Origin: a virus
Taxonomy: Duplodnaviria > Heunggongvirae > Uroviricota > Caudoviricetes
Direction: 5' to 3' (one strand)
DNA length: 35,705 bases
IMG/VR virus record: IMGVR_UViG_2698536687_000005
The notes beneath the pieces were generated by a model. It ran no database searches. It saw only the letters and a program-made list of their open reading frames with translations, and was not told the DNA's origin. Every line of letters begins with the position of its first letter. Position 1 is the first letter of the stretch. The position numbers and the translations under genes are program-made. Shown here one piece after another: positions 1 through 35,418 of the stretch.

Positions 1-1053
1 TTACGGGGTAATGCCAACCGCTGCCGCCACTTTGTCGCCACTTGGCAGCGTTGCCAGAGGATTGAAACGGAGCGCCGTTTCCAGATGATCCGGTGCCAGA
101 TGTGCGTAACGCATAGTCATTTTTATATCGTGGTGTCCGAGAATTTTTTGTAAGGCCAGAATGTTTCCACCCGACATCATGAAGTGCGCCGCAAACGTAT
201 GGCGCAGAACGTGTGTGAGTTGACCGCGAGGGAGCACGATAGACGTTTTTTCCATCACGGATAAAAATTGAAAATAGCAGTCTGTGAAGAAATTGAACCC
301 ATCAAGCGCCATGATCTCTTCGTAAAGCTCTTTACTGATAGGGATGCTTCTGTTTTTCTTCCCCTTCGTTCTGACAAAGGTAATTCGGTATTTGGTCACC
401 TGTGAGCGAGTAAGATTTACGGCTTCACGCCAGCGTGCGCCTGTGCTTAAGCATATCTTAACTACCAGTGCCAGAATTGGGTCCTGACGTTTGCAATCAG
501 CCAGCAATTCAACAATCTGCTCATGGGTAAGCCATGCCATCTCTTTTTCTGCGATGGTGAATTTTCGCATGTTCTCCAGTGGGTTCGGATACGACCATTC
601 GCCCAGACGGGATAGTTCGCTAAAAACACTACTTAGATAGCTTTGCTCCAGGTTAATGGTGACCGGGCTTGCTCCTTTCTTCCATTTCTCGCTGAAGTAG
701 ATCTCGCCTGTCAGGCGTTTATCTCGATAGTGGGCAAACATTTTAGAGGTGAGATCGGTTGCAAGAGGATTGCCCAGAGCGTCAACCATCAACAGCAATT
801 TGTCATAGACATGCTGCCCAGCTGTCAGAGATTTACCATGTAGTTTGAACCATAGTTCAACCACGTCTTTCAGTGTTCGACGATCCACTGATTCACCCAG
901 CCAGGGCTTTGCTTCGGTTTCTTCCATCGTGTGACGCTCAAAAGCCAGAGCTTCGCCTTTGGTGGCGAATTGTTTACGCACACGACGTCCACTACGTCCG
1001 GCGGGGTAACATTCGCAAAGCCATTTTCCTGTGGTGAGTTTTCGTACTGCCAT
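1..1053 (-). CDS. int: Tyrosine integrase (P2-type)
   Basis: 350-aa ORF; C-terminal catalytic signature 'HVLRHTFA ... GHHDIKMTMRYAHL' (R-H-R-Y); sits at prophage end next to immunity region; stop codon at positions 1-3. Confidence 0.9.
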   Translation of the reverse strand: MAVRKLTTGKWLCECYPAGRSGRRVRKQFATKGEALAFERHTMEETEAKPWLGESVDRRTLKDVVELWFKLHGKSLTAGQHVYDKLLLMVDALGNPLATDLTSKMFAHYRDKRLTGEIYFSEKWKKGASPVTINLEQSYLSSVFSELSRLGEWSYPNPLENMRKFTIAEKEMAWLTHEQIVELLADCKRQDPILALVVKICLSTGARWREAVNLTRSQVTKYRITFVRTKGKKNRSIPISKELYEEIMALDGFNFFTDCYFQFLSVMEKTSIVLPRGQLTHVLRHTFAAHFMMSGGNILALQKILGHHDIKMTMRYAHLAPDHLETALRFNPLATLPSGDKVAAAVGITP

Positions 1054-2833: not shown

Positions 2834-3430
2834 TTAATTTGAAACTATTGTACTTCTTATACAAGCAACTACTTCAATATCAGAAAATGCACATTCAAAG
2901 CTATTCTCTGTACTTGTAATTTTAATCATACCTTTTGGAAGCTTTGTGATTTTTCGAATGGAATAGGTTCCGTCGATGTTGATTAACCAGTGCCCATCAA
3001 GTACTTCAGAAAATTTTTGATCACAAATGTATGTGACGAGCCCATCCTGAATAACAATTGGTGATGAAAGATTTGCAGGAAGAAATGATGAATCGAAGAC
3101 ATATGAACCATCTTCAATCATTTTGCCTGCGGTAAGGCGAAACTTGGCAAGCTCTTCTGTAGCTGCTGTCAGCGAGCTTTGCTTAAGGCCTTGCCCGGTG
3201 GTTAACCATTTCAGTGAGGTTCCTGTTTCAAGAGCACATTGGATTATCCAGTCTGCAGGAAACGTATCCCGCAAATACCTGTTCGCCAGAGTGCTTTTTG
3301 ATACTTCCAAGTGATCAGCTAAAGCCTGTCGTGTCGTAAAGCCATAAGCTTCGACTAATCGCTCAATCGCAGCCTTACCACCTTTATTGGGATTTATTTT
3401 GATCTCATTTGGGTACTTTGATGTTGACAT
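2834..3430 (-). CDS. cI: Immunity repressor, phage 186 CI-like (N-terminal HTH, no S24 autoprotease motif seen)
   Basis: 198-aa ORF; N-terminal HTH-like 'FTTRQALADHLEVSKSTLANRY'; no G-x-S-M/Lys dyad; positioned between int-side cargo and apl, opposite orientation to apl. Confidence 0.75.
   Translation of the reverse strand: MSTSKYPNEIKINPNKGGKAAIERLVEAYGFTTRQALADHLEVSKSTLANRYLRDTFPADWIIQCALETGTSLKWLTTGQGLKQSSLTAATEELAKFRLTAGKMIEDGSYVFDSSFLPANLSSPIVIQDGLVTYICDQKFSEVLDGHWLINIDGTYSIRKITKLPKGMIKITSTENSFECAFSDIEVVACIRSTIVSN
3406..3418. repeat. 13-bp direct repeat CATTTGGGTACTT, copy 1 (inside cI N-terminal codons)
   Basis: Exact copy of the motif at 3465-3477; a degenerate third copy CATTTTGGGATAC lies at 3751-3763. 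Confidence 0.5.
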
Positions 3431-5330: not shown

Positions 5331-6184
5331 GCACCATCTTGAAATGGGCGGGAAATAAAACCGCCGTAATGTCCGAACTGAAAAAACATCTTCCTGCTGG
5401 TCCGCGACTAGTTGAACCTTTCGCGGGTTCCTGTGCTGTGATGATGGAGACGGATTATCCCTGCTATCTGGTTGCGGATATTAATCCTGATTTAATCAAC
5501 CTCTATAAAAAGGTTGCCGCTGATTGTGAATCGTTTATATCTCGCGCCAAAGTTTTATTTGAGATCGCAAACAGGGAGGTGGCTTATTACAACATAAGGC
5601 AGGAGTTTAATTACTCAACTGAAATTACTGATTTCATGAAAGCGGTATATTTCCTGTATCTCAATCGTCACGGTTACCGTGGGTTATGTCGCTATAACAA
5701 GAGCGGGCATTTCAACATTCCCTACGGTAATTATAAAAATCCGTATTTCCCTGAAAAAGAAATTCGCGCTTTTGCAGAAAAAGCCCAGCGAGCAACGTTT
5801 ATCTGCGCCAGCTTTGATGAAACGCTGGCGATGTTGAAGGCGGGGGATGTGGTGTATTGCGATCCGCCTTATGACGGTACGTTTTCCGGCTATCACGCTG
5901 ACGGCTTTACTGAAGATGACCAGTATCACCTGGCATCCGTTCTTGAACATCGGTCATCAGAAGGACATCCGGTCATTGTTTCTAACAGTGACACATCCCT
6001 GATCCGTTCGCTGTATCGCAATTTTACTCACCACTATATCAAGGTAAAACGCAGCATCGGCGTAGCAGCTGGTGAGAGTAAATCAGCAACAGAAATCATT
6101 GCTGTTTCCGGGCCGCGCTGCTGGGTGGGATTTGATTATTCGCGTGGCGTGGATAGTTCTGCCGTGTACGGAGTACGTGCATGA
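5327..6184 (+). CDS. dam: DNA adenine methyltransferase, Dam family (orphan, phage-encoded)
   Basis: 285-aa product from ATG at 5327 with GGAGG RBS; Dam-like N-terminus 'KWAGNK' and catalytic 'DPPY' motif ('[10 protein letters not shown]'). Confidence 0.8.
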
Positions 6185-8595
6185 GCCATGCCGATATGAG
6201 CAACTGCTGCGGCTTTAACGAGGCTGCCGCATCGTTCTCATGGAACAGCCCGAAAAAGGCCATTAACCCTTATCTGGACCCGGCGGAAGTTGCGCCGGTT
6301 TCTGCGCTTTCAAACCTGATCACTCTGTACGCTGCCGATAACGAGCAGGAACAACTGCGCCGCGAGGCACTGAGTGATCAGGTCTGGGAGCGTTATTTCT
6401 TTAATGAATCCCGTGATCCTGTCCAACGCGAAATAGAGCAGGATAAGCTCATTAGCCGGGCAAAGTTGGCGCATGAGCAGCAGCGTTTTAACCCGGACAT
6501 GGTCATTCTGGCAGACGTCAGCGCCCAGCCCTCCCATATCAGCAAGCCGCTGATGCAACGTATTGAATACTTCAGCAGCCTGGGCAGGCCAAAGGCTTAT
6601 TCCCGCTATTTACGTGAGACGATTAAGCCATGTCTGGAACGACTGGAGCATGTACGCGACAGCCAGCTATCTGCATCTTTTCGTTTTATGGCAAGCCATG
6701 TAGGGCTGGACGGCCTGCTGATTCTGCCTGAAATGAGTCAGGATCAGGTGAAACGCCTGTCTACCCTTGTCGCTGCGCATATGAGCATGTGCCTTGATGC
6801 AGCTTGTGGTGATTTGTATGCCACCGATGACGTTAAGCCAGAAGAAATCCGCAAGACATGGGAAAAGGTGGCAGCGGAAACCCTGCGTCTGGATGTCATC
6901 CCGCCTGCGTTTGAGCAACTCCGTCGGAAAAGAAACCGCCGTAAACCCGTGCCCTATGAACTCATTCCGGGTTCGCTGGCGCGTATGTTGTGCGCCGACT
7001 GGTGGTACCGGAAATTATGGAAAATGCGTTGCGAATGGCGGGAAGAGCAGTTGCGTGCTGTCTGCCTGGTCAGCAAAAAAGCATCTCCCTATGTCAGCTA
7101 TGAAGCCGTGATGCATAAACGTGAGCAGCGCCGCAAGTCACTGGAGTTTTTCCGTTCTCATGAACTGGTGAACGAAGAGGGCGACACGCTGGATATGGAA
7201 GACGTGGTAAACGCCAGCAGCAGCAACCCGGCGCACCGCCGCAATGAGATGATGGCCTGTGTTAAAGGTCTGGAGCTTATCGCGGAAATGCGCGGTGACT
7301 GCGCCGTTTTCTACACCATTACCTGTCCGTCACGTTTCCATTCCACGCTCAATAACGGCAGACCAAACCCAACCTGGACAAATGCGACGGTAAGACAAAG
7401 CAGCGATTATCTGGTCGGCATGTTTGCTGCATTTCGTAAGGCGATGCACAAAGCCGGGTTGCGCTGGTATGGCGTGCGGGTGGCTGAGCCGCATCATGAC
7501 GGTACAGTTCACTGGCACCTGTTGTGTTTCATGCGCAAAAAAGACCGCCGCGCCATTACTGCATTGTTGCGTAAGTTTGCCATCCGTGAAGACCGCGAGG
7601 AACTGGGTAATAACACTGGTCCACGCTTTAAATCTGAGCTGATAAACCCGCGCAAAGGAACGCCGACAAGCTACATCGCGAAATACATCAGTAAGAACAT
7701 TGACGGGCGTGGTCTGGCTGGCGAGATCAGCAAGGAAACGGGTAAATCCCTGCGTGATAACGCTGAATACGTTAATGCCTGGGCGTCTCTGCATCGTGTT
7801 CAGCAATTCCGCTTCTTTGGTATTCCGGGACGTCAGGCTTACCGTGAACTTCGCTTGCTGGCTGGTCAGGCGGCAAGGCAACAGGGTGACAAAAAAGCAG
7901 GTGCGCCGGTACTGGATAACCCGCGTCTTGATGCCATTCTGGCTGCTGCTGATGCTGGTTGTTTTGCCACCTACATCATGAAGCAGGGCGGCGTACTGGT
8001 TCCCCGCAAATATCACCTCATCAGAACCGCTTATGAAATCAACGAAGAGCCAACCGCCTATGGCGATCACGGTATTCGTATTTATGGCATCTGGTCACCC
8101 ATTGCAGAGGGCAAGATCTGCACTCATGCAGTGAAGTGGAAAATGGTTCGTAAGGCCGTTGACGTTCAGGAGGCGGCAGCCGACCAGGGCGCTTGCGCCC
8201 CTTGGACTCGTGGCAATAACTGTCCCCTTGCTGAAAATTTGAACCAACATGAGAAAGATGAATCAGCAGATGGGGATACCAGAACGGACATTACCTGCAT
8301 GGATGACAAGGAATTGCACGATTACCTGCACAGTATGAGCAAAAAAGAGCGCCGGGAACTGGCAGCAAGATTGCGCCTGGTTAAACCGAAACGGCGTAAA
8401 GACTACAAACAGCGAATTACAGAGTATCAGCGTCAGCAGCTCGTCTATGAACTGAAGTCCAGAGGATTTGATGGCAACGAGAAAGAGGTCGATTTGCTCC
8501 TTTGCGGTGGCAGTATTCCGTCAGGAGCAGGCCTGCGTATCTTCTATCGGAACCAGCGTTTGCAGGAAGATGATAAGTGGCGGAACCTGTATTAA
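6181..8595 (+). CDS. A: Replication initiation endonuclease, P2 gpA family (rolling-circle)
   Basis: 804-aa ORF; P2 A-like; Y-x-x-K rolling-circle motif '[12 protein letters not shown]'; start overlaps dam stop (ATGA). Confidence 0.85.
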
Positions 8596-8687
8596 TCACA
8601 CGGGTTAACAATTCGTGCTCTTAATAATACCAGGCATATCAGGCTGATGAACGTAAAAAAACGTTTTACATCAGTAAGATTATTATA

Positions 8688-8707
8688 TACTGTAAATATA
8701 AACAGTG
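8688..8707 (+). promoter_or_regulatory. Consensus LexA (SOS) box TACTGTAAATATAAACAGTG
   Basis: CTGT-N8-ACAG with AT-rich spacer at 8690-8705, about 45 bp upstream of the small ORF starting at 8749. Confidence 0.6.
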
Positions 8708-8748
8708 GTTATATGTACAGTATTGCGTATGGTGTTATAGGAGGAAAG

Positions 8749-8937
8749 ATGCAGGACTATTTTTTGGAGTCTTTGAAGCTCCAGCGCATTGATTTTTTTC
8801 TTAAGCTTGTAGCGGCTAGTGAGTGTAGTGATGAAGAGAAGGGGCTAGCTCTGCAGTGGGTTTCTGAATTGACTGATGAGTTGATGGCGAAAATTCGAAG
8901 CCATGAATACAGTAGGTCGATGGATGTAATCAGTTGA
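8749..8937 (+). CDS. Small SOS-box-associated protein; candidate Tum-like antirepressor or other SOS-induced cargo
   Basis: 62-aa product from ATG at 8749 with AGGAGGA RBS at 8739-8745; AT-rich; downstream of LexA box and upstream of a terminator hairpin. Confidence 0.45.
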   Translation: MQDYFLESLKLQRIDFFLKLVAASECSDEEKGLALQWVSELTDELMAKIRSHEYSRSMDVIS

Positions 8938-8970
8938 GCTTGTTTCGTTAGGACTTGATAAGGGAACCGA

Positions 8971-8996
8971 AAAGGGGCATTAAGCCCCTTTCTCAT
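8971..8996 (+). terminator. Intrinsic terminator hairpin between the small ORF and the convergent lipoprotein gene
   Basis: Stem AAAGGGGC/GCCCCTTT (8971-8978, 8984-8991) with 5-nt loop, followed by T-rich TCTC. Confidence 0.5.
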
Positions 8997-9004
8997 AAGT
9001 TGAT

Positions 9005-9304
9005 TTAGTTGTTACCCAAAGAGCCGGCCATGGCTGCATATTTAATTTCTTCGCTGGGTATTTCAGGATGTAGTTGAATTTGCCTGATGATATAGCCAGG
9101 AACTTCTTCACTCCACAGTTTCGCCGCGTCCTTACAGACCTTATACGCGAAGTCTCTATTCTCAAAGGCATAGGATTTTCCGTATGCATATTGCTGACAG
9201 GCATGAACATAAGCTCCGAAGTCGCCGTCTTTATCTGGCAAAGCACATCCAGCTAAGGCTATGATGATTGCTACTAACGTAAAGGAGAAAGTTATACGTT
9301 TCAT
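9005..9304 (-). CDS. Small lipoprotein, unknown function (cargo)
   Basis: 99 aa; signal peptide with lipobox 'LAGC' (MKRITFSFTLVAIIIALAGC); AT-rich. Confidence 0.65.
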   Translation of the reverse strand: MKRITFSFTLVAIIIALAGCALPDKDGDFGAYVHACQQYAYGKSYAFENRDFAYKVCKDAAKLWSEEVPGYIIRQIQLHPEIPSEEIKYAAMAGSLGNN

Positions 9305-9360
9305 GGTCTCTTTCTAAGCGTTTAGCATTATTTAACTAAGGGGTATCTGCCGTGATTTGG

Positions 9361-9389
9361 TAGTCCCTGATATATATTCTCAGGGACTA
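9361..9389. promoter_or_regulatory. Inverted repeat TAGTCCCTG-N11-CAGGGACTA between the two lipoprotein genes
   Basis: 9-bp perfect arms around AT-rich spacer ATATATATTCT; candidate operator or terminator/promoter element. Confidence 0.4.
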
Positions 9390-9412
9390 TGCTGAAGTAG
9401 CTTTAATTTTGA

Positions 9413-10219
9413 TTATTTAGAAAGGTACTTATCTCTAAGTTGATTCAGTCTGTCAGCATCGCGTTCTGAAAACTCGGCGTCACCATAGATCGATTTCCCA
9501 TCTGCGTCTTCAAGGCCAATGACTGTGACGGTAAATATAGCATCAGCCGGAACTTTAAGTTTTCCCCAATCAGAGTATCTATTAGGGGCTAATTTCCAGT
9601 TGGCTTTCTCACCTGGTTCCAGACCTCCAGAAATTTTATAGTTGAAGACGTCAGAGAACCAAGGGACGCTTCTTCCTGGGCTGGCAATAACTCCTTTGAA
9701 GAATACTCTGGCAACCGCTTTGTCTGTTCCGTTTTCAACGCTAATATCCAGAATTGGCTGATCATTGCCGTAATCCTCTTTCTGGAAATAAAAACGGGAA
9801 CGTTCGACCTTGAAGGCTTTCATTTTTTCCGCAGCCTGTGTTGCAGAGGTTTGTTTGGCTTCCAGTTCTTTTATTTCTTGCAGAGCCTGTTCTTTCTCTC
9901 TCTTCTCACGCTCAAGGCGAATAGTTTGTGCGTAATTTATAACCTCATCACCAGTTTTACCTTCCAACGCTGACTTAATTTTTGTTTCGTAGACGTCCCC
10001 AGAAGACGTTCCAGCCTGCATTAGCTCTCTCATGTTGATTTGGCTAAAGGCAACGACTTTAACTGCATCATCAAACTGAGCTTTTTTATCTGCAGGTAAG
10101 GACTCTCTTACTTTTTGAATGGACTCTTTCATCGACTGATCGCTTGATGCATCGATCTTCGGTTTGTCACAAGCAGTAAGCAGCAGAGCAAAAGCAATTA
10201 CGCCAGTTAATTTCTTCAT
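9413..10219 (-). CDS. Lipoprotein with central coiled-coil and C-terminal domain of unknown function (cargo)
   Basis: 268 aa from ATG at 10219 (track ORF extends to 10291); signal peptide 'MKKLTGVIAFALLLTAC' with lipobox; charged coiled-coil segment 'EREKREKEQALQEIKELEAKQ'. Confidence 0.65.
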   Translation of the reverse strand: MKKLTGVIAFALLLTACDKPKIDASSDQSMKESIQKVRESLPADKKAQFDDAVKVVAFSQINMRELMQAGTSSGDVYETKIKSALEGKTGDEVINYAQTIRLEREKREKEQALQEIKELEAKQTSATQAAEKMKAFKVERSRFYFQKEDYGNDQPILDISVENGTDKAVARVFFKGVIASPGRSVPWFSDVFNYKISGGLEPGEKANWKLAPNRYSDWGKLKVPADAIFTVTVIGLEDADGKSIYGDAEFSERDADRLNQLRDKYLSK

Positions 10220-10247
10220 ATCCCTATCCCAATCGTAAAAAAACAAG

Positions 10248-10268
10248 GCTAATCCTAACAGGATTAGC
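10248..10268. promoter_or_regulatory. Palindrome GCTAATCC-N5-GGATTAGC upstream of the 268-aa lipoprotein gene
   Basis: 8-bp perfect arms, 29-51 bp upstream of start codon at 10219; candidate operator. Confidence 0.4.
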
Positions 10269-10740
10269 GGGCATGACAAACTCATAGCCATATAGGTGTG
10301 CTGTATAAATTAGCGGGATGAGAAAGCCTGCACAGACCCTCATGTTGAAACTTGATTTTAGCTCAAAAGAGCTGACACTAAATAACTGCGCGGAATAATG
10401 CTCCACTTTCGGTTAGCCCTTGGCCCTTGCTGGGTAAGGCGTGGGGCCGTTTTCTTCGCCTGATCCTGCTGTATCTGGCCTACAGTATGTTGTCCTTACG
10501 CGACATGCCACATGTCAGTAAACGGCAGGTGTAGCAGTATTAGACGCAGCTATTTAGTGTGTATTAAGCTGGCTCATATTTATGACTGGTTTCAAGGTTT
10601 GACCGATTTCATGTCATGCATGTCTATGCTGCATGAGTTCGCATGATCGTTTGAGGATCGGTTTGGCTAAGACATGCCAGAACTGGCGGGCTTTTGCTCA
10701 TGTCATGCAGGTGCATGAAAACTACTACATAAAGCGGGCA

Positions 10741-10759
10741 GGCGTGGCGGGGATACGAG
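10741..10759. other. Candidate cos site (P2/186-type cohesive end)
   Basis: GGCGTGGCGGGGATACGAG; first 13 nt match the 186 cohesive-end sequence as recalled (GGCGTGGCGGGGAAAGCAT); lies between gene A side and Q as expected. Confidence 0.45.
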
Positions 10760-10869
10760 CGCGCGCTCATGGTTGAATTAATGAAATTATGGTGTTAAAT
10801 AGGCTAGCTTTTTAAGTCGTGAATATTCAATTTTTCAACTCATTTTTTTCATAGGGAGAAGTAATTGAC

Positions 10870-11568
10870 ATGGTTATGTTAGTGGATGACTGTCCACGAT
10901 GTGGATCACAAAAAATAGCGTTTGATGTTAATGGGCTGAATTGCACTAGGGTTTACAATGCATTGGGCGGGGGTAAAACATACGAGTACGAGGTCTATTG
11001 TGTTTGCCGAGAGTGTCATAAAACGACAATGTTTCTTTGCAGACCTTTAACGAAAAATAAAACTTTAGATGGCTATAATTGGGAAAGTGGAATATTCGGC
11101 TTAAAGGAAGTTGCAGAGGTTGTTAGGCCTATATCACCAGCAGACTTAGCAGTAGAGGAGCCACCAGAGTTCTTACCTGAGCATATCAATAGTGCATATG
11201 AGGAAGGGGCGAAATGTTTGGCTATAGGTTGTTATAATGCAGCAGCAACCATGTTTAGGCTTTGCCTTGATTATGCCACAAAAGGACTTCTTCCTGATGG
11301 GGAGCAAGGGCCTGCGCAAAAAATAAGGAGAAGCCTAGGGTTAAGAATGGAGTGGTTATTTGATAATCATCTACTGCCTGAAGCTTTAAGGGAACTAGCT
11401 GAATGCGTTAAAGATGACGGAAATGATGGAGCGCATGAAGGTATTTTGGATAAAGCTGCTGCTGAGGATCTTGAAGATTTTACCTATCTTTTTTTAGAAC
11501 GGCTTTACACTGAACCTCAACGCCTTATCGAAGCCAAGACAAGGCGTGAACAAAGAAGAAACAAATAA
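10870..11568 (+). CDS. Zn-ribbon + DUF4145 (HEPN-like) protein; candidate single-gene defence/Abi cargo
   Basis: 232 aa; N-terminal 'CPRCGS ... CVCRECH' four-Cys arrangement; C-terminal 'YEEGAKCLAIGCYNAAATMFRLCLDYATK ... NDGAHEG' resembling DUF4145; AT-rich promoter-like upstream region; GGGAGAAG RBS. Confidence 0.6.
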   Translation: MVMLVDDCPRCGSQKIAFDVNGLNCTRVYNALGGGKTYEYEVYCVCRECHKTTMFLCRPLTKNKTLDGYNWESGIFGLKEVAEVVRPISPADLAVEEPPEFLPEHINSAYEEGAKCLAIGCYNAAATMFRLCLDYATKGLLPDGEQGPAQKIRRSLGLRMEWLFDNHLLPEALRELAECVKDDGNDGAHEGILDKAAAEDLEDFTYLFLERLYTEPQRLIEAKTRREQRRNK

Positions 11569-11576
11569 GTTCGGAA

Positions 11577-12611
11577 TTATTCTTCTGAAAGAATATAGGG
11601 CGTAAATTTAATCACTTCTTCGCCCAGCCAGTCGTTCAGCTCTTGTAGCCTTTTTTGCAAGGGCGTTAATTCATTACGTACAAATACGCGACTGGCTTTC
11701 TCCACATCCCCAAACCCCCCGACATTATTAGGCATTATCCCCATCATTTGCGGCGGCACGCGGTGTGCAGCCATCATGTCGTCACGGCTCACGTTTTTGA
11801 TATTCAGAAACTCATCCTTCGCTGCGACTTCTGACAACGGGATAATCTGAAGCCCGTCCTTTTTGCCGTTAGGCGAGTACATAAACAGATTGCGGAAGTT
11901 GCCAGGGCCTTTGGCGCTTTTCATCGCGTTGCGGAGGTTGTTCACGTCCTCCTGGTTCTGCGCAGCGTCGGTCATGTACATGATGAAGCCAGCATGACTG
12001 CCGTTAATGTAATACTTTCGACGGAACAGCGTGGCAGACTCATTGAGCAGGGCGGACGGAATGGCAGAAAGATAGCCGGGCAGGCCGTAGATCTCCTGGT
12101 TAATGTCCGGTTCCATCAGATGAAAAATGCTGCCTTTCGTGAACTGATACGGCTGGGTTGTCATACCGAATTGCAGAAACCAGTAGGTATCCAGGTCTAA
12201 CCCGCGTCGGGTGTATTTTGCCAGAGCAGGCTCAAGGGCGATAACTTCACCGAAGCGGTTCGTGCGTTTCTCCAGGTAGGCGTTACCAAATACCAGATAG
12301 TCCTGCACAAAACGTGAAAAAGCCTGCTGGCTGAGCAGCGGGTGGGGGATGTAGGTACTGGTCAGAATGTTGCATTTCACCGCAATTGGTGAACTGTGAT
12401 GCACGGCGGCGCGGAAGGTGCGCGCCAGTCCGTCAAAGCTTACTGGCGGCTCATACCAGCGATCTGTCTGTACGCATTCCACATAGTCCAGTAGTTCGCG
12501 GCGGTCCAGAACAGGAACGGGATCACCGAAGCTGAATGCTTCGGCTGTAGTTTGACTTTTATGCTGGATCTGGTTCGTCGACGCAGCGCGGTTCTTCTTA
12601 CTCTTTCCCAT
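11577..12611 (-). CDS. Q: Portal protein (P2 gpQ)
   Basis: 344 aa from ATG at 12611 (track ORF begins one codon earlier at TTG); P2 Q-like size and position; start overlaps P stop. Confidence 0.88.
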   Translation of the reverse strand: MGKSKKNRAASTNQIQHKSQTTAEAFSFGDPVPVLDRRELLDYVECVQTDRWYEPPVSFDGLARTFRAAVHHSSPIAVKCNILTSTYIPHPLLSQQAFSRFVQDYLVFGNAYLEKRTNRFGEVIALEPALAKYTRRGLDLDTYWFLQFGMTTQPYQFTKGSIFHLMEPDINQEIYGLPGYLSAIPSALLNESATLFRRKYYINGSHAGFIMYMTDAAQNQEDVNNLRNAMKSAKGPGNFRNLFMYSPNGKKDGLQIIPLSEVAAKDEFLNIKNVSRDDMMAAHRVPPQMMGIMPNNVGGFGDVEKASRVFVRNELTPLQKRLQELNDWLGEEVIKFTPYILSEE

Positions 12612-14377
12612 CAAAAAATCTCCACAATATTACTGGTATTGGCGGACTCGCCCTGCAGTGGTTCGTTAAACAGTGCGTGCATTGTTGCCCAGGCCAGATC
12701 GGCGTGGCTGGCTTCTTCGCTGCGGCTGGCTTCATAGGTCGGGCGGTTGCCACTGGCGGTGGTTGCGCGACGGATTGCCATGAATGACTGCGCAATGTCG
12801 GTGTGCCCGGCGTCAAACTCCAGACGGCGGTGGCTGATAATGTCGTAGGCCTTGAGTACCAGGGCGTTTTTAACGTTGGGGTTGTAGACAAACTCCCGGA
12901 CGGCAGGAAAGAACGCTTTCACGTTCTCGTAAACCCCGTGACCAACGCCGGTTGAGTCGATACCGATATAAGTCACGTTGTACTGTTCGGTAAGTTTTTT
13001 GATGGCGTCAGCCTGGGCGCGGAAGTCCATCCCGCGCCACTGGTGACGCTCAAGAATGCGGAACTTACCACCCGGCACGGCTGGCGGTGCCACCACCACG
13101 CATCCAGCGCTGTCGCCGTTTTGCGTACCTTTTGCCGGGTCATAACCGATCCACACTTCGCGCCAGCCAAACGGGCGCAGCGCCAGTGCATGAAAGTCGG
13201 TCCAGACTTCCCAACTGTCCACCATGCACGCCTGCAGCTCGCTGAGCGGAAACACGGACGCGAGATCGTCCACAAACTCGCACATCAGCAGGTTCTGGTA
13301 TTCGTCTGGGCTGTACTCCATGCGTAGCTGGTCGAGGTCGAACAGGTTACAGCCGCCGCGCACCGCATCTTCCACGGTGACTATCTGGCGGTATTGCCCG
13401 TCTGCGCACAGCAGGCCGGGGGCCAGATTGCTGTGGGACAGGTCGATGTCCACCTTATCGGCTTTGTTGCGCCCACGGTTGAACAGCGCACCGGACCAGA
13501 ACGGATAAGCACTGTGTGTCAGACTGGATGGCGTGGAAAAATAGGTTTGTCGCCATTTTTTGTGAATAGCCATACCGGAAGCCACTTTGCGCAGCTCCTG
13601 GAATTTCGGTATCCAGAAATATTCATCCAGATACAGGTTGCCGTGGTAACTCTGGGCCGTGCGGGCATTGGTGCCGAGGAAGTAAAGCGTGGCCCCGTTA
13701 GGAAGCACCATCGGATCGCCTTTCAGCTCCACCTCCACTTCTTTGGCAAAGTCGATGATGTACTGTTTAAAGACGTGGGCCTGAGCCTTGCTGGCAGAAA
13801 GGAAAATCTGGTTACGCCCGGTCAGCAGGGCGTCAATCAGGGCTTCACGGGCAAAGTAAAAGGTCGCGCCGATCTGGCGTGACTTCAGCAGGTTGCGGAT
13901 GCGGTTGGTTTTTCCGGCTTCCCACCAGTGGCGCTGGTAGTTGAACATAGAGGAATGGAAGATTTCTTCCAGTTTCTCAATCTGTTCATCGGTGAAAACA
14001 TTCTTTTCCGGCTGACGACGTGGGCCTTTGTTGCGGTTGGCAACGTTAGGGTTTAAGTCGGCTTCGTTGCCGCCATTGTTAAACTTGCCGATCCGCGCGT
14101 GGCGCTCAGACTGGCGTGCCAGCAGGTCAATTTCTTTGAAATCTTTCCCTTCTTTGTGCTCCTTCATAATGAGCTGGCAGTAGCGTGCGGCGGTGGTGAG
14201 CTGCATCTGATCCAGCGGCCCATAGTCACCCCACTTGTCGCGTTTTTTCCAGCTGTGAACGGTTGCAACTTTCTCGCCCAGCATTTCAGCAATGCGGGCG
14301 ACGCGGTATCCCTGAAAGTACAGCAGCATGGCCTGCCGACGGGGATCGAGATCTGCGGGTGTCAGTGTGGTGTTCAT
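12611..14377 (-). CDS. P: Terminase large (ATPase) subunit (P2 gpP)
   Basis: 588 aa; P2 gpP size (about 590 aa) and position. Confidence 0.88.
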   Translation of the reverse strand: MNTTLTPADLDPRRQAMLLYFQGYRVARIAEMLGEKVATVHSWKKRDKWGDYGPLDQMQLTTAARYCQLIMKEHKEGKDFKEIDLLARQSERHARIGKFNNGGNEADLNPNVANRNKGPRRQPEKNVFTDEQIEKLEEIFHSSMFNYQRHWWEAGKTNRIRNLLKSRQIGATFYFAREALIDALLTGRNQIFLSASKAQAHVFKQYIIDFAKEVEVELKGDPMVLPNGATLYFLGTNARTAQSYHGNLYLDEYFWIPKFQELRKVASGMAIHKKWRQTYFSTPSSLTHSAYPFWSGALFNRGRNKADKVDIDLSHSNLAPGLLCADGQYRQIVTVEDAVRGGCNLFDLDQLRMEYSPDEYQNLLMCEFVDDLASVFPLSELQACMVDSWEVWTDFHALALRPFGWREVWIGYDPAKGTQNGDSAGCVVVAPPAVPGGKFRILERHQWRGMDFRAQADAIKKLTEQYNVTYIGIDSTGVGHGVYENVKAFFPAVREFVYNPNVKNALVLKAYDIISHRRLEFDAGHTDIAQSFMAIRRATTASGNRPTYEASRSEEASHADLAWATMHALFNEPLQGESANTSNIVEIF

Positions 14378-30857: not shown

Positions 30858-31954
30858 ATTTCAGCTCTGAACTGCTTAACAAGGGCAACAAAACTCCCGC
30901 ATTCAGCATCAGTATTGAGGGCAGGGATATCACTACTGTGCTGGACAACCGCCTGATGGGGCTTACGCTGACGGATAACCGGGGCTTTGAAGCGGACCAG
31001 CTTGATCTGGAGCTGGACGATGCTGACGGAAAAATCGTGCTGCCGCGCCGTGGTGCGGTCATTACGCTGGCGCTGGGCTGGAAGGGGCAGCCGCTTTTCC
31101 CGAAAGGGGCATTCACGGTGGACGAGATTGAACACACTGGCGCACCGGACCGCCTGACTATCCGGGCGCGAAGTGCTGATTTTCGGGAAACGCTGAATAC
31201 CCGCCGTGAAAAGTCGTGGCACAAGACCACGGTCGGGGAAGTGGTGAAGGAAATAGCCGCGCGGCACAAACTGAAGATGGCATTGGGTAAAGACCTGTCA
31301 GATAAACCCGTGGAACATATAGACCAGACCAATGAGAGTGACGGCAGTTTTCTGATGCGGCTGGCGCGCCAGTACGGTGCTATTGCGTCGGTGAAAAATG
31401 GCAATCTGTTATTCATCCGGCAGGGACAGGGTAAAAGCGCCAGCGGTAAACCACTACCGGTTATCACTATCACACGTAAGGACGGCGACAGTCACCGCTT
31501 TACCCTGGCAGATCGCGGAGCCTACACGGGCGTAATTGCCAGCTGGTTGCATACCCGCGAACCCGCGAAGAATGAAAGCACCACGGTGAAGCGTAAGCGC
31601 AGGACTAAGAAGCAGAAGAAAGAGCCGGAAGCGAAGCAGGGCGATTACCTGGTGGGTACAGATGAAAACGTGCTGGTACTTAATCGCACCTATGCCAACC
31701 GGAGCAACGCCGAACGGGCGGCGAAAATGCAGTGGGAACGCCTGCAACGCGGCGTTGCGTCATTCTCGCTACAACTGGCAGAAGGTCGGGCAGATCTCTA
31801 CACGGAAATGCCAGTGAAAGTCAGTGGCTTTAAACAGCCGATAGATGATGCGGAATGGACCATTACGACTCTGACGCATACCGTCAGCCCCGATAACGGT
31901 TTTACAACCAGTCTGGAGCTTGAAGTGAGGATTGATGATTTCGAAATGGAATGA
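30854..31954 (+). CDS. D: Tail protein D (late control D family)
   Basis: 366 aa; GTG start overlapping U stop; P2 gpD-like. Confidence 0.85.
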   Translation: MNFSSELLNKGNKTPAFSISIEGRDITTVLDNRLMGLTLTDNRGFEADQLDLELDDADGKIVLPRRGAVITLALGWKGQPLFPKGAFTVDEIEHTGAPDRLTIRARSADFRETLNTRREKSWHKTTVGEVVKEIAARHKLKMALGKDLSDKPVEHIDQTNESDGSFLMRLARQYGAIASVKNGNLLFIRQGQGKSASGKPLPVITITRKDGDSHRFTLADRGAYTGVIASWLHTREPAKNESTTVKRKRRTKKQKKEPEAKQGDYLVGTDENVLVLNRTYANRSNAERAAKMQWERLQRGVASFSLQLAEGRADLYTEMPVKVSGFKQPIDDAEWTITTLTHTVSPDNGFTTSLELEVRIDDFEME

Positions 31955-32331: not shown

Positions 32332-32862
32332 CTAGCATCCGATAAGGTCGTTTGCTTCAAACTTTGGCAAATGATACTCATTTGCCAAATGTTCGTTATC
32401 TTTGTTATTTTTTAAATATTTGTATTTTAATGTATTTTTATCTTCATTGTATGATAATAAAGCTTCCCCGATAGGAACATCACGCCACCCTATTTGAATG
32501 CAAAGAAGGATAGTGACCTGCCCTTTATGGTTTAGCTTACCCGAGAATGTAAAGGTGCATTTCTCTTCATCAAGGCTTGTTGATGAACAGTTAGTGATAG
32601 TCCCTCCCAAATTGCCGACGACATCTGATGACTCAATTTTTATGCTTATTATATTCTCATTATGGTTGCGAATATCACCAACATTGTTCCAGTTTTTTGA
32701 GACTAGAAGCTCAATAATTCTTTTTTTCTTAAGGCGTTTTACTTCCTTTGCCTGTGGTGAGTATAAGAGGTATGCGGGTATGCCTGCTACAATCGTTGCT
32801 ACAATTGCCAGCACAGCTAATATAATGGTAACCATCTGAAGTCCTTGTTCTTCTGCCGCCAT
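32332..32862 (-). CDS. Membrane-anchored protein of unknown function (cargo between ogr and host junction)
   Basis: 176 aa; N-terminal TM helix (LQMVTIILAVLAIVATIVAGIPAYLLY); strongly AT-rich unlike flanking phage and host DNA. Confidence 0.6.
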   Translation of the reverse strand: MAAEEQGLQMVTIILAVLAIVATIVAGIPAYLLYSPQAKEVKRLKKKRIIELLVSKNWNNVGDIRNHNENIISIKIESSDVVGNLGGTITNCSSTSLDEEKCTFTFSGKLNHKGQVTILLCIQIGWRDVPIGEALLSYNEDKNTLKYKYLKNNKDNEHLANEYHLPKFEANDLIGC

Positions 32863-32930
32863 TTTGCCGCCAAAGATAAGTAAAGTAGTTTCTAACTTAT
32901 TGATTATGGAATGGAAGAATAGCAGGCAAC

Positions 32931-32973
32931 AAAAAACCCATCAACCTTGAACCGAAATGGCGGGGTTGATGGG
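32931..32973 (-). terminator. Intrinsic terminator on minus strand downstream of ybjL
   Basis: 10-bp stem CCCATCAACC/GGTTGATGGG (32937-32946, 32964-32973) preceded on plus strand by AAAAAA (a U-tract on the minus-strand transcript). Confidence 0.55.
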
Positions 32974-33085
32974 CTCCACAAAATGGGGACATCAAAGAAA
33001 AGCAGTGGCACTAATTAAGACTGATGCCCTGCGGAAAAGTTCTGCGGTTGTGCAAAAAAATTTCATTTTCAGGGCAACTTCAGTT

Positions 33086-35040: not shown

Positions 35041-35418
35041 GTGAAACATAAACAACGTTGGGCGGGGGCAATCTGCTGTTTTGTCCTCTTCATTGTGGTG
35101 TGCCTTTTTCTGGCGACGCACATGAAAGGCGCTTTTCGGGCTGCCGGGCATCCTGAAATCGGCTTGCTATTTTTCATTCTTCCTGGAGCAGTCGCCAGCT
35201 TCTTTTCACAGCGTAGAGAAGTCCTGAAACCTCTGTTTGGCGCAATGCTGGCGGCACCCTGTTCGATGCTCATTATGCGGCTGTTTTTTTCACCGACGCG
35301 CTCATTCTGGCAAGAGCTGGCATGGTTACTAAGCGCGGTGTTCTGGTGTGCGCTGGGGGCACTGTGTTTCTTATTTATCAGTAGTTTGTTTAAACCACAG
35401 CACAGAAAAAATCAGTAA
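35041..35418 (+). CDS. ybjM: Host inner-membrane protein YbjM
   Basis: 125 aa, four hydrophobic segments; synteny between ybjL and grxA. Confidence 0.85.
   Translation: MKHKQRWAGAICCFVLFIVVCLFLATHMKGAFRAAGHPEIGLLFFILPGAVASFFSQRREVLKPLFGAMLAAPCSMLIMRLFFSPTRSFWQELAWLLSAVFWCALGALCFLFISSLFKPQHRKNQ

Follow-up and report, generated by a model that had tools for sequence, protein, structure and literature searches.

The closest described system is RAZR, an anti-phage defense encoded by a single gene. It was discovered as PD-T7-4 by Vassallo et al. 2022 (PMC9519451), described there as 'Zn finger-HEPN', and was renamed ring-activated zinc-finger RNase (Zhang et al., Nature 2026, PMC13017515; PDB 9Y9C, 9Y6U; E. 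coli UMB1727). RAZR consists of a Cys4 zinc finger and a DUF4145/HEPN RNase domain with the catalytic residues R146 and H154, and the exchanges R146A and H154A abolish defense (PMC13017515). In the resting state RAZR forms linear oligomers, which are inert, and the protein is not toxic when overproduced alone (PMC13017515). It is switched on when 24 copies assemble around rings of ~170 Å, either portals (T7, T3, SECphi18) or the Erf-like SECphi27 Gp77; the active enzyme cleaves single-stranded RNA non-specifically and infection is aborted (PMC13017515). The zinc-finger domain is the specificity determinant and the most variable region (PMC13017515). Here, we analyzed a gene for a 232-amino acid (aa) protein with a zinc ribbon and a DUF4145/HEPN domain (hereafter the DUF4145 gene) in the IMG/VR virus record IMGVR_UViG_2698536687_000005. 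The window, i.e. the whole analyzed stretch of 35,705 nucleotides (nt), holds a complete P2/186-like prophage plus host genes from about 32.9 kb. The gene is probably a stand-alone RAZR-like anti-phage (superinfection-exclusion) cargo gene of this prophage, residing in the cos-proximal region between the genes for gpA and gpQ. This region is a published defense hotspot of P2-like phages (PMC9122126, PMC9519451, PMC13586616). The features on which the argument rests are the following.

1..1053: integrase
2834..3430: CI repressor
6181..8595: replication gene A (gpA)
10617..10767, no strand: conserved cos region, with DNA identity to P2-like phages; homology ends ~8 nt past the cohesive end
10741..10759, no strand: 186-type cohesive end (cos) of 19 nt, predicted; GGCGTGGCGGGGATACGAG, compared with GGCGTGGCGGGGAAAGCAT in phage 186
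10773..10800, plus strand: candidate cassette promoter TTGAAT-N16-TTAAAT, inferred
10853..10861, plus strand: Shine-Dalgarno-like AGGGAGAAG, 8 nt before the ATG, read from the sequence
10870..11568, plus strand: Zn-ribbon-DUF4145(HEPN) gene, 232 aa, ATG start (open reading frame (ORF), Pfam, PADLOC, hhalign, Cartapus gp01)
10870..11040, plus strand: N-terminal Cys4 zinc ribbon, aa 1-57, C8-x2-C11...C46-x2-C49, with invariant Cys; putative trigger sensor
11041..11136, plus strand: hypervariable linker, aa 58-89, 22-23% mean identity; left unaligned to RAZR by hhalign
11179..11514, plus strand: DUF4145/HEPN domain, aa 104-215 (Pfam match, family conservation, RAZR identity)
11410..11436, plus strand: predicted catalytic motif K181-D-D-G-N-D-G-A-H189, (K/R)-x7-H
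11515..11565, plus strand: basic C-terminal tail with A222, R225, R226, and R229 as conserved columns
11577..12614, minus strand: portal gene Q (Pfam Phage_portal, ORF), convergent with the DUF4145 gene; context, outside the system
12611..14377, minus strand: terminase gene P, with the late genes beyond it

Homology to RAZR and the predicted active site

A first-pass annotation of this DNA had proposed an N-terminal four-cysteine ribbon followed by a DUF4145-like region belonging to the HEPN superfamily, and both assignments stood. Pfam DUF4145 (PF13643) matched aa 114-203 with E=4.5e-7 and 30.3 bits (gathering threshold 23.1). The PADLOC model of the 'Zn finger-HEPN' system PD-T7-4 was the only credible defense match (E=1.2e-6, 26 bits, aa 36-200, 127/211 model positions), and no NCBIfam model matched the 232-aa protein. 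Conservation was analyzed in a family alignment of 24 homologs (A1) and in a second alignment of 52 homologs. Invariant in both were the four ribbon cysteines C8, C11, C46, and C49, the tail residues A222, R225, R226, and R229, and H189. K181 and the whole K-DDGNDGA-H motif were invariant in the 24 homologs, which represent several bacterial phyla, and K181 was conserved at >=90% in the 52. As evident from mean identity to the query, this motif was the best conserved stretch of the protein (95-97%); the corresponding values were 70-73% for the HEPN domain, 22-23% for the linker, and ~15% for the loop formed by aa 21-40.

Neither the protein nor the family profile retrieved 9Y9C when the PDB was searched with HMMER, although the structure was present in that copy of the database. 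The connection to RAZR was therefore made via a true PD-T7-4 member and a profile-profile comparison. Streptococcus phage Javan263_0009, a weak tblastn match in phage genomes, proved to be such a member (PADLOC E=7.7e-71, 236 bits). An alignment of its homologs (A6, 20 RAZR-family sequences) matched PDB chain 9y9c_OA, the 219-aa E. coli RAZR, with E=4e-76. Homologs from an Stx phage (POCJ13) and from a Burkholderia phage were rejected as bridges; their PD-T7-4 scores were below that of the window protein.

Comparison of A1 with A6 by hhalign gave a probability of 97.8% and E=8e-13 over 178 columns (query residues 6-220) that include the two CxxC knuckles as well as the HEPN helices. The following segments were paired, the protein being given first and the RAZR family second.

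CPRCG: CPNCG
second CxxC knuckle: second CxxC knuckle
PPEFLPEHI: SPNQDMPDNV
AAATMFRLCLD: SAALSRLAIEK
CVK181DDGNDGAH189EG: SVRVVGNNAVHPG (SVRVVGNNAVH)

This alignment over both domains supports the earlier guess that the product may be a compact abortive-infection effector. Direct comparison with RAZR (9Y9C) by BLASTP yielded 25% identity over 136 aa, with K181 opposite R146 and H189 opposite H154; the motif thus aligned with R146-IVGNQAV-H154 of RAZR. From this register we deduced that 'KDDGNDGAH', which had been pointed out in the first-pass annotation as similar to the HEPN motif, is the predicted active-site motif, and the most conserved stretch of the protein coincides with it. The HEPN motif Rx4-6H is 'mostly conserved (80%)' in DUF4145 (Anantharaman et al. 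2013, PMC3710099). In the present protein it takes the form K-x7-H and in RAZR the form R-x7-H. The residues by which RAZR contacts its triggers (R29, Y31, R35, T41, E43) fall within the inter-knuckle loop, the counterpart of the poorly conserved aa 21-40 loop.

The catalytic arginine itself is lacking in the 232-aa protein: K181 takes the place of R146, an arginine that is invariant in the 20 RAZR-family sequences. Among 266 retrieved relatives, the position corresponding to K181 was occupied by K in 165 and by R in 67. Such alternation argues for a functional basic residue and against a dead site, and catalytic competence with lysine appears plausible from conservation and K/R interchange. 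A Lys-type (K-x7-H) site may nevertheless have an activity differing from that of the Arg-type RAZR. On the best reading of the alignments, the DUF4145 gene product and RAZR would represent sister clades within one superfamily.

The cos-proximal slot and its cargo

The cohesive end of phage 186 is 19 nt long, and its first 13 nt recur as GGCGTGGCGGGGA at 10741-10753, in line with the earlier placement of a candidate cos site at 10741-10759. This segment probably represents a 186-type cos with candidate cut sites. DNA identity of 85-92% to ~40 P2-like phage records from Klebsiella, Salmonella, Yersinia, and Escherichia was confined to 10617-10767, and in ~1270 E. coli genomes the match to the cos region also stopped near 10767, the point at which homology ends in E. 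coli genomes lacking the gene. The distance from cos to the portal stop codon amounts to 818 nt in the window versus 167-176 nt in P2 and 186. GC content is 0.39-0.43 across the DUF4145 gene versus 0.51-0.62 in Q and P.

The presence of a 232-aa plus-strand gene between the candidate cos site and Q was confirmed: the ORF occupies 10870..11568 and the coding region of Q, on the opposite strand, ends at 11577, such that the stop codons of the two convergent genes are 8 nt apart. The extent given earlier, 10800-11568, was right at its end but not at its start; 10800 takes in upstream non-coding DNA, and the ATG lies at 10870. The ribosome-binding site claimed before was found as the Shine-Dalgarno-like AGGGAGAAG at about 10853-10861. 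The claim of an own promoter did not hold in the same way. A sigma-70 consensus scan from cos to the ATG detected no plus-strand promoter, and TTGAAT-N16-TTAAAT stayed below the threshold. Just to the right of cos, however, the columns GGTTGAA and TGGTAT(C/T)AAA were kept among 15 diverged alleles, the downstream sequence being otherwise diverged. The conserved element at 10773-10800 may serve as promoter of the cassette or may belong to the packaging signal.

The product is 100% identical to gp01 of Escherichia phage Cartapus (YP_010663973.1), in which cos, gene, and portal gene are arranged alike. The Cartapus record begins at window position ~10709, and its first 59 nt (10709-10767) are annotated as putative cos site. 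The protein also corresponds to RefSeq WP_000245245.1, 'DUF4145 domain-containing protein'. Both records carry the domain name alone, without function or family assignment. The protein was likewise entered as 'DUF4145' in the hotspot table of Rousset et al. 2022. The 'Putative HEPN' construct pFR103 from the P2 hotspot, which was assayed in that study, was considered and rejected as a match, as it contains a different protein.

In P2 and 186, the interval from cos to the portal gene contains the terminators tQ/tW but no gene. This part of the first-pass annotation was correct. A gene in this position is nevertheless not unusual, because the slot belongs to the published gpA-gpQ hotspot, in which the DUF4145 gene is placed by its position after gpA (6181..8595) and between cos (10741-10759) and Q (11577..12614). 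The same slot is filled by other plus-strand cargo in other phages: Fels-2 has a gene for a 565-aa protein, RE-2010 an AIPR gene with the annotation 'prevents superinfection', and a Klebsiella phage a pair encoding an ATPase and RloB. With other cargo in this slot and the hotspot on record, the location between cos and Q is no anomaly. In two P2-like loci, that of Enterobacter wuhouensis (L015, 6697-7795) and L115, an extra gene of ~1.1 kb separates the DUF4145 gene from Q; the slot thus has room for two or more cassettes.

The gene was found in 43 of 5426 complete E. coli genomes, always on the chromosome. A related Q or cos region occurs in ~1230-1270 E. coli genomes; ~97% of such prophages are without the DUF4145 gene. 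These numbers run counter to the possibility, raised at the outset, that the gene is a conserved backbone component of 186-like phages. As a side observation, the highest DNA identity of the window's Q (11577-12614) across the complete E. coli genomes of the collection was 95.1%, whereas strain TW10598 has a DUF4145 gene with 100% identity to the one next to this Q. Because the gene is identical and Q is not, recombination at or near the junction between the two is suggested.

In IMG/VR, a relative abuts a P2-type portal gene in 44 of 61 loci, in 42 of them within 48 nt. Across the portal-abutting loci, protein identity ranges from 100% down to 49%, that of Q from 98% to 62%, and the distance to gene A from 584 to 3645 nt.

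The family as a whole extends far beyond P2-like phages. It comprises 927 clusters (50% identity) at E<=1e-3 and 137 at E<=1e-30. Its members come from Proteobacteria, Planctomycetes, Verrucomicrobia, Nitrospirae, Omnitrophota, and Actinomycetes as well as from plasmids and other temperate phages; most reside on bacterial chromosomes and plasmids, without phage context. When one genome per species was considered, the P2 portal gene was adjacent in 5 of 67 loci and not in the remaining 62. Clustering of 455 flanking ORFs revealed no conserved partner (antitoxin or second component): outside P2 contexts, each neighbor family was seen in at most 3 of 59 species-level loci, and the only recurrent neighbors were the P2 genes Q, P, and A. 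The non-P2 neighbors included transposases, integrases, toxin-antitoxin genes, TIR, KAP NTPase, AbiEii-type ATPases, and housekeeping genes. As there is no recurring neighbor, the gene is regarded as a stand-alone accessory element. Three relatives from unrelated temperate phages were recorded in addition. In Gordonia phage Meyran (L140, 94-783) the relative is gene 1, ahead of the terminase genes at the genome end. ORF17 of Virgibacillus phage Mimir87 (L141, 3183-4115) is a longer relative situated amid tail genes and matches PD-T7-4 with E=5e-12. Gp20 of Shigella phage POCJ13 (L005, 4040-4714) is found in Stx-type phages beside a Ren-like exclusion gene and a RelE/ParE module.

A comparison of 37 distinct P2-linked loci showed that phages with portals of >=95% identity can have DUF4145 proteins whose N-terminal regions share as little as 33-55% identity, with 66-94% for the HEPN domains. 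A variable N-terminal part joined to a constant HEPN domain is what would be expected if a conserved effector carries an immune sensor, and the N-terminal part may accordingly be read as such a sensor. Strict co-evolution of sensor and portal was also considered but was not supported, as near-identical portals stand beside very different N-terminal regions.

A probable defense function and competing explanations

Taken as RAZR-like cargo, the system can be pictured as follows, by analogy with RAZR. The protein would be produced in the lysogen and would be inert there. Upon infection by another phage, its variable zinc-ribbon/linker region would bind a phage protein, the RAZR precedent being a portal or Erf-like ring of ~170 Å. 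Binding would reposition HEPN dimers, and the K181/H189 site, with its lysine, would cut single-stranded RNA. RNA cleavage would halt translation, and the infection would be aborted.

Several observations weigh against this reading. Similarity to RAZR is remote (20-25% identity), the PD-T7-4 model gave 26 bits for the 232-aa protein compared with 236 bits for Javan263_0009, and the direct HMMER searches failed as described above. The arginine essential in RAZR is replaced by lysine. PHROGs phrog_1305, labeled 'DNA binding protein', matched with E=9.5e-53. A structure model computed from the single sequence was unusable, with a predicted local distance difference test (pLDDT) value of 39 and a predicted template modeling (pTM) score of 0.26; helices were predicted over aa 104-230 in this low-confidence model. 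The negative promoter scan also belongs here. Finally, the protein was catalogued by Rousset et al. 2022 but was outside their assayed systems. In spite of these points, we hold the defense reading to be the probable one, and the following competing explanations were weighed against it.

The HEPN protein could serve as a toxin in a prophage addiction or stabilization module of the toxin-antitoxin kind rather than as a phage sensor. Toxin-antitoxin systems commonly contain HEPN toxins (PMC3710099), and HipA, HigB, and HepT do occur among the neighbors at some loci. On the other hand, neighbor clustering brought up no conserved adjacent antitoxin or MNT gene. The nearest genes in the window are the convergent Q and, beyond cos, that of a DUF6694 protein. 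Moreover, RAZR is not toxic on its own, and a hypervariable sensor domain suits the recognition of foreign proteins. An addiction module is thus improbable.

The label of phrog_1305 invokes a different idea, namely a DNA-binding or regulatory phage protein, such as a zinc-ribbon transcription factor or a packaging accessory factor acting near cos, in place of an immune effector. A zinc ribbon combined with an Arg-rich C-terminal tail would fit such a role. So would the position beside cos, the contact with the portal gene in 44/61 viral contigs, and the Meyran homolog, which as gene 1 just precedes the terminase genes. However, P2, 186, and ~97% of the E. coli prophages with a related Q or cos region do without the gene, unrelated cargo fills the slot in other phages, and 62/67 species-level loci lie away from the P2 portal gene. 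Conservation peaks in the HEPN catalytic motif and not in the zinc ribbon, and the PHROG label is an unverified annotation. We consider a DNA-binding function quite improbable.

Least probable of all is an inactive Lys-for-Arg clade acting in phage counter-defense, as a decoy or inhibitor that co-assembles or competes with host RAZR-type systems: the replaced arginine (R146A abolishes defense) and the phage-borne position next to a portal gene, portals being known RAZR triggers, would agree with it, but drift would be expected at a dead site, whereas H189 and the K-DDGNDGA-H motif are invariant in 24 homologs of several phyla, K and R alternate at position 181 within one family, and most members are on bacterial chromosomes and plasmids without phage context.

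The RAZR-like defense reading leaves room for a narrower proposal about the P2-linked clade. No intrinsic terminator was found on either strand between the DUF4145 gene and Q (window 11560-11580; terminator scan and inverted-repeat search), unlike the situation in P2 with tQ and 186 with tW. Late transcription of P and Q may therefore run antisense through the gene. The stop codons are 8-48 nt apart, the genes are convergent, tQ is missing, and the arrangement is kept as identity of Q drops from 98% to 62%. On this basis, linkage between the clade and the portal gene could be functional and not incidental, either through antisense silencing while the phage makes its own portal or because a self-tolerant sensor-portal pair is kept together. 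We regard functional linkage as a tentative and rather unlikely proposition. If it were true, the gene would be a phage-against-phage weapon with built-in self-exemption.

Other cargo of the prophage and comparison with known systems

The prophage carries further accessory genes. A second defense gene lies at 1137-2813 on the minus strand between the integrase and CI repressor genes. It encodes 558 aa, has a GC content of about 0.36, and its product matched PADLOC PD-Lambda-1 (E=1.7e-119) as well as Pfam DUF4041 and T5orf172/MUG113. Between gene A and cos, PADLOC gave no match for three ORFs (8647-10291), listed below together with the features at the right end of the window.

8647..8937, plus strand: A-side cargo ORF, 96 aa, no family
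9005..9304, minus strand: A-side cargo ORF, 99 aa, no family
9413..10291, minus strand: A-side cargo ORF, 292 aa, DUF6694
32928-33006, minus strand: RybB small RNA (Rfam, 105 bits), just past the last phage genes
33086-34771, minus strand: protein with Pfam Asp-Al_Ex and TrkA_C
35041-35418, plus strand: Pfam YbjM family protein

The A-side differs among prophages that share the DUF4145 gene, others having DUF2971, DUF6575, or a protein annotated as valyl-tRNA synthetase. As RybB follows beyond the last phage genes, the prophage appears to be integrated next to rybB. The ~1-kb stretch from gene D (ends at 31954) to RybB contains a minus-strand ORF of 176 aa (32332-32862), which matched neither Pfam nor PADLOC and may represent a further cargo gene.

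Both the kind of protein (RAZR, reported in 2022 and 2026) and its location (the P2 hotspot, reported in 2022) had been described before, and the protein itself is catalogued. Two things are new: the sister clade, distinct and very large, with its (K/R)-x7-H site, and the stable tie of this clade to the portal gene in P2-like phages. If confirmed, the ring-activated mechanism of RAZR would extend to a second, very large clade, lysine would be able to stand in for the HEPN arginine, and one more type of P2-hotspot cargo would have a named mechanism. These findings also raise the question of how a prophage that builds its own portal ring avoids triggering a RAZR-type sensor encoded 8 nt from the portal gene. 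In annotation, a 'DUF4145 domain-containing protein' at a P2-like cos-Q junction can be flagged as a RAZR-like defense candidate.

Several described systems can be compared with the present gene. The other HEPN effectors of abortive infection (Abi2/AbiD-like PD-T4-5, PD-T7-3, AbiU2-type, RnlA/LsoA-type) use a HEPN RNase in abortive infection, as the candidate would (PMC3710099). PD-T4-5, PD-T7-3, and the AbiU2 and RnlA/LsoA types have other N-terminal domains and the canonical Rx4-6H motif, and none of their models matched the 232-aa protein. Known P2 hotspot cargo (old and tin in P2, AIPR in RE-2010, and many more; Rousset et al. 2022, Vassallo et al. 2022, NAR 2026 gkag898) has the locus, the low GC content, the patchy occurrence among related prophages, and a transcription unit facing the portal gene in common with it. 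In virion DNA, however, P2 old and tin are at the right end, to the gpA side of cos, whereas the DUF4145 gene is at the left end, to the Q side. A-side cargo turns over fast; in contrast, the DUF4145 gene is kept at the Q junction down to 62% portal identity. RAZR differs in a linker that in the E. coli protein is ~30-40 aa shorter and in a C-terminal tail that is not basic, the tail of the 232-aa protein being Arg-rich. Like the present gene, RAZR is a single-gene system of similar build (219 aa vs 232 aa), with the same order of an N-terminal Cys4 zinc ribbon and a C-terminal DUF4145/HEPN domain. Its basic-x7-His motif is in register with K181/H189, the AAxxxRLC helix motif is found in both proteins, in both the sensor domain varies most, and both are carried on mobile elements.

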